64,000 nt of DNA, taken from NCBI GenBank assembly GCA_964016885.1, contig OZ024740.1, positions 273,792,001 through 273,856,000 of the forward strand, in the 5' to 3' direction. A program made the position numbers and the translations under genes. This DNA is from Eledone cirrhosa (lineage: Eukaryota). The notes below the pieces were generated by a model. It worked only from the letters and a program-made list of their open reading frames with translations, did no database searches and was not told the DNA's origin. Below are positions 24,243 to 44,458 of this stretch, one piece after another. How positions within the stretch are numbered: the first letter of the stretch is position 1; each line of letters opens with the position of its first letter.

Positions 24243-24681
24243 ACGTTTGAACTTGTAAAGCCAAACGATGCAGGTATGCACATAGAATAAAAATGCAAAT
24301 GCAAAAGATATTGTTGACAATTAGTCTTTTACCTTAGATTTATTTAAATGTCCTTAATTTTCGAGATAATATCTCTTCTTCGGAGGGGAGTAAAGCGGTT
24401 AAACCAGTGTTCTAAATAGCTTGCCAAGTCATGCTGACAGCATGAATTGGCAAGCTATTTAGAACACTGGTTTAACCGCTATGTTGACAGCACGACTTGG
24501 CAAGCTATTTATAACACTGGCTTAACCGCTTTACTTCCCTCCGATGAAGAGATATTATCTCGAAAATTAAGGACATTTAAATAAATCTAACGTAAAAGAC
24601 TAATTGTCAAAAATATCTTTTGTATTTGCATTGTTATTCTATGTCCATACCGGCATTGATTGGATTTACAAATTCAAACGT
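24243..24681. mobile_element. Fold-back element with degenerate minimal hammerhead in each arm (Penelope-like/retrozyme-like)
   Basis: Arms about 190 bp with 1-nt centre (catgctg-a-cagcatg at 24437) and a roughly 50-bp tandem duplication in the right arm; right end runs into (TA)n. Confidence 0.8.
24535..24574 (+). ncRNA. Degenerate minimal type I hammerhead motif
   Basis: cct-CCGATGA-a-gagat(att)atctc-GAAA-at-TA-agg; core U4 replaced by C; the mirror copy on the minus strand reads CCGAAGA. Confidence 0.5.
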
Positions 24682-26289
24682 ATATATATATATATATATA
24701 TATATATATATATATATATATATATATATATATATATATATATATATATATATATATATATATTATATATATATATATACATATATAAATATATTATATA
24801 TATATATATATATATATATATATTATATATATATATATACAAGTATATCTAGTTGAGCATATCTAGTTGTATGTATATATATGTATATAAATATATATAT
24901 ATATGTATATATGTATATGTATGTATATATATATATATATATATATATATATATATATATATATATATATATATATATATATATATATATATGTATATAT
25001 TTATATATATTTATTAAAATAACAGATTAAAGTTCAAGCAAAGAATCGCTGCTTTGACTCTTAACGGGATCTTCTGAAACTAAAAAAATCAATCTGTGAA
25101 CACAGAAGTAAATATTTCGAAAAACGTTGCAACCGAAGGAAGATAGGTAGAGGATACTTTGGTTCGTGGAAACGTTCCCTGGCAAAGAACAGGAAAACGC
25201 GAAGATAATACGTCCGTATGTGGAGCAATGAGAACAATTACATGCAAAGACAAACGACGATTATGGTATAAATGAAGTCGTAGACTAAAATTCTATTTAG
25301 GAAACCGAATGATTCTCGGCTTCAGAGTTAAGAATAATGTAAATAAATTACAGAGGTTATTGAAATCAACAATAATTAAATATATCGATGTACGCATCCA
25401 TATACGTACATACACATGCATATGTGGAAACACCCGCCATGGGTATGCAAATATAGGCACGTACACAAAACCACGCGCACACATACAGAGACCCACACAA
25501 TGCCTATACCCTCACACATACGAACGTATAGACCAAATATACATAAAACATATAAAATATATATATATATATATATATATATATATATATATAGAAAATA
25601 CCCATAAAATTATGCCTAATTCTGGGTCTAGATATTATGTTTTTATAATGGAAGTTAGAATTGTTAATAAGACTGAATAACAGAAATTAAAACTTTAGAT
25701 TGTAGTAAAGTAAAGAATATAAACCTAAGGTATGGAATACTATAATTTAAACGAATAACTAGCAAATATCATCCTCCATCATATGAATGAACACACTTAG
25801 TGAGAGATAGAAAATATCAGGAAAGAGCACGGTAAATACACATATATATACACACACACACACACATATATATATATATATATATATATATATATATATA
25901 CACACATATATACCCATGTACATCAATATAGAAATAGGGTAGAAATGGTTAATATAGTGATTTTTACTACATTCCTGGTTAAGTAACATTTAATAGGTGT
26001 AATCCTATGCTTAAAATTATGCTTAGACAATAGAATTGACCATCCCCCGCAAATAGAATTAATCCAGGGTCTAGATATTATGTTTTTACAATGGTAAATA
26101 GAGTTAGCAATACAAATGAAAAAATAGAAATTAAAATGGGAAATAAAAATTAAAATCGTGTTTTAAGTAAATAAAGAATATATCCTAAAGTCTGGAACAT
26201 GAAGGGGAACGGGCATTCACTTCATCAACATTGTATTTGTCCCTTGTCACTTCAATTTTGCATTACATCCTGATTGTAACCTTATTATG

Positions 26290-26680
26290 TAAGAAGCTAT
26301 CTGGTGAGATCATGGCACAAGGTATTACATGGAATCGCATGGTGTGCAGAAGATTTGCATAGATTAGAAAGAAACAAAACTTGCATGCTTCGATGGAAGT
26401 GTAATAGTAATGTTTGCGAACAGCAAAGCATAAACGAATTGAAAGAGAGACTAAGGTATCAAATGGTGTGTGCAGGAGAGAAGATTGCATTGGTATGGAC
26501 ATATGATGCATATGAAGGACAACAACTGTATAAAAATGTGCAGAGCGATCAAAATTGATGGAAGCTACGGAGTGGGTTGACTGAGAAATCCTGGGACGAG
26601 GTGATAAAAACTGACCTTGCTCACTTAGACCTCTCTAAGACAATTTCACTGGATTGAGATCTTTTATGCTATGGAGGAAA
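26290..26680 (+). mobile_element. RTE LINE C-terminal fragment
   Basis: LHG..WCAEDLHRLERNKTCMLRWKCNSNV, similar to 53500-53870. Confidence 0.8.
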
Positions 26681-26879
26681 CAATACAAGGCAACTAACAA
26701 TATTAAGATGGGGGTATATATACAGAAAGGAAGGGGTGACATATATGTATTTTAAACAAGTTGGTTATACAAATTATTAAAATGTATGAGGCCTTTAGTC
26801 CTGTTTTACAGAGCTGAATACCTAAAGCTAATTGAGGAACCCTACAAATCCACAATTGCCTTGATCTTCAGTAGCGAGT

Positions 26880-28385
26880 GCCCTCTCCCAACTATTGTTA
26901 TTTGACCTACAGTCACAAACTGAGAGAAGTTCCATTCATTTTAATATTTGGTCAAATATACTGGAGGAGACCACTTCCCTCTCCAACCACACCTTTCTTT
27001 AAAAGTGGAACTTTAAACAGTCAATGAAAGCCGGACTGAAGAGGAATTTGTCTGTCACCAGGCATTTCAGTCTTGGTCAGCACACAACCTCATTCATCAT
27101 AGCCACCAGACACAGGAAAACAATTCACTCAACCCTGTTGAAAGAAGGTTGCAGGGCTATCTTCATGATAGACTTTCAATAGCTGGATCTGTCCTAATCA
27201 TGACAAGAGTTTTTTAACATAACTCCACAGCTCAGAAAAACATGGACATTGAATGAATGCATGTAGAACAGTTCATCACACTGTGCACATCTCGGACAGG
27301 CCCATCTGACAGCACTTACATACATGTATAGTTTATCAGCATTCCCCCTGGTAGCACTGTCAGGTCAGAGATTTATAGAATTTATCAAAAGTCTTCTAAA
27401 ATAGGCCAAAGAGTTTTTTTCTCATTGACAACTAGGATTTCTCTGAGAGCATCATCAAATTTCCCCACCACTAAGCCTTTATTTATTGTTAATATTGAAC
27501 TTTCACTGATCACATAGCCTGACTGGTAGGAACAATACACAGACTCAGTGCCTGTTTGTGTATCAACAGCCACAGCATGCCACATTCTCTGTTCAGTGGA
27601 AGTTGGCAACAGATGGACTGTCTAACCAATGAGACACAGCCTTTCCATGAGAAGCAGAAGAGCATATGTTCCAGATTGGTCAGACGAGGACTGAGACAAG
27701 AACGAGGGTCTGGCGATAAATGATGATAGACGCAATGTAAGCATTTGCCACCTTTGTCTGAACTTTCAGGGATAGCTTCCTCTCGGCCCATTTCTGAGTG
27801 AGAGCTACCACCCTGCTCTTAAATTTATCTCACTTCCGATCCACATGGAGTTCTGGACTCTTCCAGTCCTCTAGCAGTTTAACCAGGCTGTCTGAACACC
27901 ACCCGACAACACTGTCTGATGACAGGACATGCCTTTCCATTTACTGAGCTCCAAGTACACTGACTTACTGGTTTGATACGTGCCCCTGCCACCCCATCAT
28001 ACTTATTTAGGGCAGTGCCAATCCAATCCAATTCTGTGGTGTGCAGTACCATCCTGGTCACATCCTCGACATATGCCAATACAGCTCTCTCACAACTCCA
28101 GTTAGTTTCCATAACAGTGAATCTACAGCCAACACATACATGAGAGGGAATATTCCTGAGGGTCCAAGCACTCAATAGGAAAAAGCTTTGAGAGCTGGCC
28201 ATTTACGTTTCTAAGCAGGTACTACTTCAGTGCATAACAGTGTTCCCACCCTGAAAATGGGGCTAAAATCGGCTACTCTAAGGACAGATGCCAAGTAGCG
28301 ATGGTGGTCAATACCATAAGCTTTTGATTGATCCAAGTTGATTGAAGATGCACTGAACCATCTTCTCATGTAGATGAGGTTCACC
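26880..28385 (-). mobile_element. Diverged Tx1/L1-like ORF2 fragment
   Basis: Reverse strand encodes LVRQSICCQLPL, LVVGKFDDALRE, AYVEDVT, matching 17650-19300. Confidence 0.8.
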
Positions 28386-42720: not shown

Positions 42721-42904
42721 TGTTTCTACTTTAGGCACAAGGCCAGCAATTACCCAGTACATTACTGGTACTTTATTTTATCGACCCCGTAAGGATGAAA
42801 GGCAAATTTAACCTCGACGGGATTTGAACTCAGACCGTAAAGGGACGTAACTATGCTGGAAAGCATGGCGTCCGACTCTCTACCGATACTGCCAATCCAC
42901 CGGC
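42721..42904 (-). mobile_element. SINE family A inserted in the palindrome arm, 14-bp TSD
   Basis: CTTCCAAAAATAAT at 42707-42720 and 42905-42918. Confidence 0.92.
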
Positions 42905-42971
42905 CTTCCAAAAATAATGGTCGCTTATAATAGGGTACGTCAAAATTATTTATAAAACTGTTTATATATTG

Positions 42972-43036
42972 TATTTTATCTGACGAAGGCATGCCATATT
43001 TTAATTTGGTATCCCTGAAATATGTATAATGAAATA
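42972..43036 (+). ncRNA. Type I hammerhead ribozyme, core intact
   Basis: Stem I tattttat/atgaaata (8 bp, one GU); CTGACGA; stem II aggcatgcca..tggtatccct; GAAA; short self-complementary stem III tatgta; AUA cleavage triplet (cut after 43028). Confidence 0.8.
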
Positions 43037-43590
43037 AATATGGTTTTATAAATATAGTTTCCATTTATTTAATATCGTATATCTACTCCAAAAACTTGTC
43101 GAGTGCTTTATATCAGTTATAAAATATTTACTTGTTGTATACCAACAATTTTAAATAAAACTTTTGCATATATATTTATATATATATTATAAATTAATAT
43201 ATAGCTTATTTTTCAATGTGTGTGTGTATATATATATATATGTTTGTTTATGGTTATATATATATATATATATATTATATATATATATATATATATATTT
43301 GTTTATGGTTATATATATATATATATTATATATATATGTTTGTTTATGATTATATATATATTATATATATATGTTTGTTTATGATTATATATATATATAT
43401 ATATATATATATTTATATACACACACACATTGAAAAATAAGCCATATATTAATTTATACTATATATATAAATATATTTATATTTATTTATATATATATTA
43501 TAAATTAACATATAGCTTATTTTTCAATGTGTGTGTGTACATATATATATATGTTTGTTTATGGTTATATATATATATATATATATATAT

Positions 43591-44458
43591 ATATGATAAT
43601 AAGGGCGCTGCGGAGTTGCAAATGGGTTACATATGAAAAAAGTGTGTCCTTCATCAGTGATCTTCCAACCATCATAGGCATTTCATCGCTTTAAAAACCA
43701 TATACCTCCGGTTGGGGCGAGCAACGGCTAAAAAAAGTCGTTGGGACACTTTCTAGCAGTCTCTCTCTCTGTTAGCCTCTTCCTCACCCTTCACTCACTC
43801 ATTCTCTGTCACTACCTCTCCTCCTCCTCTTTCTTCCCGTTTGACCTGTGCGTAATTCTTTTCTCTCGCACGTTCGTCCAAGCTGTCGGAATTTTTTCTC
43901 TCTCTCGTCTGCGATTTCACAGAACTTATGTTTACCGAATTCGCAGACCAGACCCTTTCTTCCTCCCGTTAGACCTGTGCGAAATTCCTTCCTTGCTCAC
44001 ATTTCAACCAGGTTTGATGGTCTTTATTCTCTCGTTCACGATTTCACCGAATTTAAATTCATAAAAATTTGGGACTTGACTCCTTCTTCCTCACTTTCTG
44101 TTGCTTCACCATTTTGTTTGTTTACATTCGCGTCCCCTTTATTTACGTGTCCCAACGACTTTTTTTAGCCGTTGCTCGCACCAACCGGAGGTATATGGTC
44201 TTTAAAGCGATGAAATGCCTATGATGGTTGGAAGATCACTGATGAAGGACAAACTTTTTTCATATGTAACCCATTTGCAACTCCGCAGCGCCCTTATTAT
44301 CATATTTACACATATTTCTTCCACGGCTAATTCTGGAAACGGGATGAGCTCAGCCGTGGGGTCCAACTCGTTCCTATTACCCACTCTACTACCCTAAGTA
44401 TTGAGTACTTTGGTGCGTTATGGTCCACCTGCTTCCTTACCACATTTTCTTCGTTATA
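43591..44458 (+). mobile_element. Inverted-repeat element (159-bp arms 43591-43749 / 44147-44305) with broken hammerhead and conserved tail, inside (TA)n
   Basis: Near-identical arms; CTGATGA at 44239 and GAAAcgg..tgagctcagccgt at 44336; tail nearly identical to 31550-31628. Confidence 0.8.

Follow-up and report, generated by a model that had tools for sequence, protein, structure and literature searches.

A 64,000-nucleotide stretch of the Eledone cirrhosa genome (assembly GCA_964016885.1, contig OZ024740.1, positions 273,792,001 to 273,856,000 of the forward strand; here called the window, with positions counted from its first letter) carries six non-coding repeat loci, L1 to L6. These are probably 5'-truncated 3' ends of several families of endonuclease-bearing Penelope-like elements (PLEs), with L6 holding a predicted permuted, core-opened hammerhead ribozyme common to Naiad-clade elements. 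L1 to L5 are most likely known PLE debris, and their anatomy has been described before; the predicted fold of L6 suggests a Naiad-clade ribozyme of a form not yet described. Region 23,500-45,500 was inspected directly, and the masked whole window was compared with itself for repeats and inverted copies. The six loci exist as claimed by a first-pass annotation, and five of them (L1, L2, L3, L5 and L6) have the inverted partial copies that it described; L4 has none. Published work is cited for the available passages of each source.

L6 contains the following features:
43596..43749, minus strand: inverted arm with a second copy of the permuted fold (CUGAUGA starts at 43657; 35 base pairs)
43750..44146, plus strand: pyrimidine-rich non-coding stretch, part of a repeat family to which numerous contigs and reads of organisms A and C align
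44147..44252, plus strand: predicted non-circularly permuted, core-opened hammerhead
44147-52/44247-52: helix X
44153-57/44170-74: hairpin Y
44175-79/44207-11: helix II, with C.U at 10.1-11.1
44181-86/44226-31: interaction helix P
44190-94/44215-19: helix III
44195/44196: predicted cut (U-A site)
44196-202/44232-38: helix I
44212-15: GAAA box
44239-45: CUGAUGA box

The inner end of the inverted arm corresponds to the first base of helix X, and the arms are 98% alike (151 identities, 3 mismatches, 0 gaps). The stretch 43750..44146 is likely a 3' untranslated region. Both arms fit a pseudoknotted arrangement of six helices in the order X-Y-II-P-III'-UA-(cut)-I-II'-GAAA-III-P'-I'-CUGAUGA-X'. The hammerhead blocks stand in the non-circular order site, GAAA, CUGAUGA, which is that of type-SGC ribozymes; helices I and III and the I-II interaction helix are present in both arms, and the 5' strand of helix II is shifted to the front. 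The predicted break in the core falls between A9 and 10.1 and would be clamped by helix X and hairpin Y. Where the first-pass annotation saw a partial type I core in L6, the core is complete but wired differently. A type I core with helix II and GAAA deleted was considered, and no such insertion occurs among the indels listed in aligned copies. Type II and type III parses failed by eye, and a type-CSG descriptor has no match in the window.

In the window, a six-helix descriptor with ranges set knowing L6 matches the two arms of L6 (34 and 35 bp) and nothing else. When sequences are shuffled with the boxes kept in place, 26 of 477,201 satisfy all six helices, the best with 32 bp. Unguided folding recovers X, Y, P and III, the nested helices. 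At 44217 the family majority has A-U in place of the G.U pair of helix III, which makes this helix fully Watson-Crick. Paired variants at 44157/44170 in hairpin Y seem compensatory; both fit CpG decay and were excluded from the count.

The same fold occurs in a metagenome repeat family. A core-box pattern search was followed by analysis of 120 of about 900 metagenome loci, 40 viral loci and 120 of about 510 genome loci. Twenty-six of the metagenome loci, drawn from two assemblies, belong to a single family with common 3' ends and unrelated flanks. Eight of these pass four helices of the descriptor and five of the eight pass all six, while none of the 254 other pattern-matched loci from the three collections passes. 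Pairing directly after CUGAUGA is 1 bp in all eight matches. In alignment A1, which holds 22 of the 26 loci (four partial or truncated loci were excluded), 91.3% of cells are paired vs 88.2% when shuffled, and there are 41 two-sided changes vs 16.8; most of these come from three compensatory swaps that separate two subfamilies and affect X, P and helix I. The family-2 motif has 0 matches in the metagenome, viral and genome collections.

This homologous metagenome fold is linked to a reverse transcriptase (RT). At one locus (L027), an open reading frame (ORF) encoding an RT C-terminus ends 262 nt upstream of the motif and is 68% identical to P0015; Pfam gives only a weak RVT_1 match in this check. 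P0015 is a protein of 858 aa with an N-terminal GIY-YIG domain, CxC, a DKA motif and a C-terminal RT. GIY-YIG first, then CxC and DKA, with RT last, is the Naiad signature (PMC8557442); judged by its domain order, P0015 is a Naiad.

Published Naiad ends carry related folds. Consensi of 54 families in the PMC8557442 supplement were parsed by hand from CTGATGA matches 29-58 of 62, 23 of 23 CTGACGA matches and CGAAAC matches 1-30 of 81. Among these passages at least eight are core-opened, at least eight are type-CSG and at least one is type-SGC (17 in total). The core-opened records comprise three near-identical Acropora records, two from Octopus, and those in parts 8 (with a short helix I), 12 and 19; another record (part 25) has the fold in part. 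The eight type-CSG records are, by file order, the eight nematode Naiad families and have long interaction helices. Plain type-SGC is found in one record (part 17), and five further core-like passages resisted parsing. The cyclic order C>S>G is common to all parsed forms. There is a reasonable case that many Naiads carry an active, non-circularly permuted hammerhead in at least three openings of one cyclic order: CSG in nematodes, SGC in one record, and core-opened in corals, octopus and others including L6. In its available passages, PMC8557442 reports no canonical hammerhead in Naiads, just nine 'core' and eight 'half core' cases.

Several observations weigh against the permuted-fold reading and its tie to Naiads. 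The descriptor ranges were set knowing L6, and shuffle rates are therefore optimistic; 1678 window shuffles gave nine four-helix matches and one six-helix match of 35 bp. Folding z-scores are just -1.3 and -1.5, and helix II contains the C.U at 10.1-11.1. Helix X may be shorter in most of the family owing to the majority change at 44251, and one pair of Y may be lost to a variant at 44171 for which the listed variants include no partner change. Within the metagenome family, 18 of 26 loci fail the strict descriptor; the swaps in A1 amount to about three events, and helices II and III, both partly fixed by the search pattern, have no two-sided change. R1, a covariance model of that family built on nested helices, does not detect L6 and picks up just generic hairpins in the window. 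What ties L6 to Naiads is therefore topology, linkers and a by-eye likeness of hairpin Y to Naiad_Ovul. The parses of published consensi are manual, no RT adjoins any window locus including L6, and no tested precedent for an A9/10.1 break was found in the literature.

Three other loci, L1, L3 and L5, carry type I or type I-like hammerheads. They and the short interspersed nuclear elements (SINEs) within them are laid out as follows:
24243..24680, unstranded: L1, head-to-head palindrome of a 5'-truncated PLE-like 3' end
24429-24445: L1 centre hairpin, 8 bp with a 1-nt loop
24431-24530: partial 50-nt tandem in L1
24538..24572, plus strand: L1 minimal type I hammerhead, with U4 changed to C in both arms, an extra nucleotide at 9/10.1 and palindromic 15.2-16.2
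24383 (start), minus strand: mirror copy of the L1 hammerhead
34377..35613, unstranded: L3, older inverted pair with three SINE copies within
35502, plus strand, and 34676, minus strand: L3 hammerhead-like core and its decayed mirror
34457..35106, unstranded: three copies of a ~195-nt SINE in L3, bearing A- and B-box-like tRNA motifs and separate from the PLE unit
34453-34462 and 34643-34652: 10-nt target duplication of the first L3 SINE
42514..43081, unstranded: L5, palindrome with an 8-nt loop at 42695-42702
42980, plus strand, and 42615, minus strand: L5 type I hammerhead, the best in the window
about 42721-42904: SINE in L5, with a 14-nt target duplication at 42707-42720 and 42905-42918

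A minimal type I descriptor (CUGANGA, helix II, GAAA, palindromic helix III, UH, helix I; at most one core mismatch) gives six matches in the window vs 0.35 per shuffle (475 shuffles). Both L5 arms have the full order and score 18; the best shuffle scores 15. The descriptor also matches L4, which has lost G12, and both L1 arms, in which U4 is C; these have one core change each. The sixth match (21001, minus strand) lies outside the loci and is probably due to chance. L2, L3 and L6 are missed. The claim of a hammerhead core at each locus thus stands for L5, for L1 and L4 with one core change each, and by eye for L3, where helix II has two mismatches; L2 has only half a core and L6 no type I core. 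An Rfam search, which the first-pass annotation had proposed, gave no hammerhead among the best 150 of the 324 rows for the window, nor on L3, L5 and L6 alone.

The L1 arms align with 176 identities, 15 mismatches and 5 gaps, the outer arms of L3 with 66, 13 and 4, and those of L5 with 176, 1 and 0. Self-comparison of the window reveals ten or more copies, whole or partial, of the ~195-nt SINE. The L5 copy is 92-96% like its nearest window relatives, while the L5 arms are 99.4% alike. The SINE insertion lies at the base of the L5 hairpin (42707-42918) and has turned a near-spacerless palindrome into a spaced one.

L2, L4 and a further copy, L2b, have one common 3' module:
31444..31627, plus strand: L2, Hydra-like PLE 3' end
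31444-31488: L2 inverted copy, which folds back at the helix II loop (31489-31494)
31507-31510 and 31528-31529: GAAA and UC site of the L2 half core, with a long helix III; the CUGANGA box is absent
39562..39753, plus strand: L4, single Hydra-like PLE 3' end with no inverted copy
39573-39616, plus strand: L4 hammerhead, G12 lost
39654: L4 conserved stem-loop
44318..44448, plus strand: L2b, second, more decayed L2-family copy, directly behind L6

The L2 arms align with 44 identities, 1 mismatch and 1 gap, and L2b aligns to L2 (31507-31627) with 103, 10 and 8. The claim that the loci have largely different sequences holds only in part, given this common module and the SINE present in both L3 and L5. 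Downstream of the hammerhead, at 31555-31582, 39654-39676 and 44383-44410, is a stem-loop that has a bulge of 2 nt on its 3' side and AC behind it; that of L4 carries a UUCG loop. It is possible that this Hydra-type stem-loop serves as an RT recognition signal. The available main text of PMC8557442 does not use 'stem-loop' or 'hairpin'. The stem-loop descriptor is weak and post hoc: three of its six window matches are the target loci, shuffles give 1.03 matches each, and 19 of 200 shuffles reach three.

Four sequencing runs were aligned to 43750-44456 (707 bp). The alignments comprise 13,908 contigs (X1) and 22,205 reads (X8), and two other organisms contribute 266 and 95 contigs. Both L6 and the L2 family are therefore high-copy, although depth is not a measure of copy number. 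Loose ends of the aligned copies run into TA. A dispersed multi-copy family with a fixed 3' end in (TA)n was found for L6 and the L2 family only. The majority of 5,516 reads upstream of L2b (agreement 0.91) is identical to the L2 right arm; GAAA, helix III and the UC site are therefore L2-family traits. A 60-nt core of the L2-family 3' end (44350-44447) is common to several subfamilies with differing neighbours and to organisms B and C. Read-end stacks in the restriction-site-associated DNA (RAD) run coincide with AATT sites; they were not taken to mark the ends of RNAs or elements. No RNA data set was listed as containing the sequence, which does not bear on expression.

No ORF with a PLE reverse transcriptase and GIY-YIG endonuclease is present in the window, according to the ORF list and a tblastn search with a Naiad protein; the first-pass annotation had likewise found no ORF at the loci, as is expected for truncated copies. 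The claimed position at (TA)n is borne out in part. At each locus, one 3' end or more lies no farther than 11 nt from a TA tract of at least 8 nt, compared with 10.6% of non-TA positions in the region; the loci were chosen partly by TA proximity, which affects this comparison. Against a general TA link, four 3' ends of inverted pairs are 48, 98, 90 and 156 nt from such a tract. The identification as PLE termini in (TA)n with inverted partial copies agrees with the data and describes an already published arrangement (PMC8557442, PMC4209133). The proposal of non-autonomous families does not follow, as the same picture arises from 5'-truncated copies of autonomous PLEs.

From these features we infer self-cleavage of L6, priming in (TA)n and fold-back at intrinsic hairpins. 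A read-through transcript would be cut by the ribozyme about 60-150 nt before the element 3' end. The RT and GIY-YIG nuclease of a full-length partner would then prime reverse transcription at a nick in (TA)n. Where the RT halts early, the new strand may fold back or switch template at an intrinsic hairpin, leaving an inverted copy; candidate hairpins are the L2 helix II loop, the L1 8-bp hairpin and the 5' edge of the L6 ribozyme. Self-complementary (TA)n would ease the joining of both ends. The L6 ribozyme itself would consist of the helices of validated type-SGC ribozymes, P included, opened between A9 and 10.1 and clamped by X and Y.

A tentative alternative, compatible with this explanation, is that L2 and L6 are true non-autonomous families, similar to retrozymes or SINEs, that PLE enzymes copy as ready-made hairpin or tandem units. 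Immediately 5' of helix II, L2 and L2b agree letter for letter, although a new inversion should have made them differ. At the boundary of the L6 arm the summed depth increases about five times; in one other contig opposite strands are likewise joined at base 44147, and one organism C contig has a head-to-tail joint from 44322 to 43750. A preprint also argues that animal retrozymes are PLE derivatives (10.64898/2026.07.22.740005, available passages). However, 11 contigs run upstream of 43752 into other pyrimidine-rich sequence and no 43750/44147 joint occurs among those listed; the L6 left arm therefore seems copy-specific. The window has no tandem array of whole units. A hammerhead descendant that no longer cuts, conserved as a structured signal in RT binding or in forming the 3' end, is a rather unlikely reading of the L6 fold. 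Its opened core, its C.U at 10.1-11.1 and the lack of a depth step at the predicted cut fit such a signal and count against cleavage, and PLE minimal hammerheads cut poorly in vitro (PMC4209133). CUGAUGA, GAAA and the U-H site nevertheless stay in register across all parsed lineages although helix letters vary freely, and the related CSG and SGC forms cut in vitro (PMC10085705).

The inverted copies are improbable as products of post-insertion fold-back repair at (TA)n or as assembly artefacts, in which case they would be uninformative on the insertion mechanism. Palindromes with no hammerhead match do occur in the window (41530-42091, 2101-2382 and 58023-58194). Yet the L1 and L3 arms have diverged, the SINE and its target duplication are in one arm only of L3 and L5, and L1, L2 and L5 are centred on element hairpins rather than TA tracts. 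It is very unlikely that L6, and perhaps L1 and L5, are DNA transposons resembling miniature inverted-repeat transposable elements, with long terminal inverted repeats, TA targets and motifs that arose by chance. The symmetric L6 arms end at the same base with a sharp depth step at the arm boundary, and elements with terminal inverted repeats are common in octopus annotation (PMC13282606); the shuffle controls, the fold common with RT-linked Naiad ends and the copy-specific upstream sequence speak against them. Truncated PLE ends, with a Naiad-type fold in L6, remain the preferred explanation.

Palindromes elsewhere in the window include 41530-42091, ~560 bp of ordinary microsatellite-rich DNA centred on (TA)n with neither element nor hammerhead; fold-backs here therefore need no ribozyme. 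Palindromes without a hammerhead match are found at 2101-2382 (72% self-identity), 58023-58194 (88%) and 58344-58401 (83%). TA flanks the palindrome at 2101-2382, which might represent a decayed PLE end, the seventh in the window. Short inverted ends around (TA)n tracts at 1878-2023 are presumably Tc1/mariner-like. Remnants that we take, from their translations, to be long interspersed nuclear elements of R4/Dong-, Tx1-, CR1/L2- and RTE-like types are located at 11033-13790 (minus strand) and, on the plus strand, at 14600-19350, 23227-24193, 29770-31080 and 52424-53910.

If true, the permuted fold would be the first non-circular RNA permutation in animal genomes and a hammerhead layout beyond the six thought possible. 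It would resolve a stated puzzle, the apparent lack of need for a ribozyme in the most prolific of the PLE clades. Permuted hammerheads, known solely from anonymous environmental sequence, would gain a place in genomes and many natural variants, and a further layout, with a catalytic core opened and then re-clamped by extra helices, would join those known.

PLE insertions are 5'-truncated and often lie beside an inverted truncated copy (PMC8557442). Cervera and de la Pena (2014; PMC4209133) describe metazoan minimal hammerheads in PLE pseudo-long terminal repeats, with an extra base at 9/10.1, palindromic 15.2-16.2 and opposite-strand pairs 100-700 bp apart. L1, L3 and L5 resemble these in the extra nucleotide, palindromic helix, paired arrangement and mostly single truncated copies; unlike them, the window copies are decayed and have no Rfam score. 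Published counts are 235 hammerheads in giant squid (PMC6962438) and 31 recently active PLE families in O. vulgaris (PMC13282606). The loci also resemble animal non-LTR retrozymes in being non-coding, hammerhead-bearing, PLE-linked repeats (PMC7229834; 10.64898/2026.07.22.740005). Unlike retrozymes, which form head-to-tail arrays with a type I hammerhead per unit, the loci are single or head-to-head; the window has no such array.

The Hydra clade (PMC8557442 supplement) resembles the loci in its (TA)n preference, which all listed Hydra families but one have, and in a type I hammerhead with a short helix III near the 3' end. The inverted copy, with hammerheads on both strands, is seen in Penelope-13_HM. 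By eye, the helix I and III letters of L4 are those of Hydra-2_Amil, and the stem-loop shape recurs, with letters changed, in Hydra-2_Amil, Hydra-2_Ajap and Hydra-1_Crog. The ends of L2 and L4 differ from that of Hydra-1_Obim. No RT is seen, and the clade assignment therefore rests on the 3' end.

L6 resembles the Naiad clade (Craig et al. 2021, PMC8557442) in its inverted 5'-truncated copy, in a motif ~60-100 nt before the 3' end and in its (TA)n preference, a target listed for five cephalopod Naiads and Hydra-1_Obim. Its fold and linkers resemble the Naiad_Obim and Naiad_Ovul ends by eye, and its GAAA to CUGAUGA spacing of 23 nt equals that of the published octopus Naiad ends. Unlike published Naiads, L6 has no ORF and its helix letters differ. 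PMC8557442 calls cephalopod Naiads old remnants; the L6 arms, by contrast, are 98% alike.

Eckert et al. (2023; PMC10085705) validated type-SGC and type-CSG ribozymes, which cut in vitro and require the I-II interaction helix. CUGAnGA was assumed to be joined to helix II in an uninterruptible block, and the available passages place permuted hammerheads outside the genomes of known organisms, bar one GCS candidate. No paper linking Naiads or PLEs to permuted hammerheads was found in a search that excluded subscription journals; the available passages of 10.64898/2026.07.22.740005, PMC13725137, PMC3088659 and PMC10162972 make no such link. Unlike in type-SGC, the helix II 10.x strand of L6 is at 44175-44179, before the site and not directly after CUGAUGA; L6 may therefore work like SGC but is not filed as a member. 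It shares with type-SGC and type-CSG the cyclic order C>S>G, the short linker from helix I to II, the conserved core boxes and an interaction helix that joins the far sides of helices I and II.

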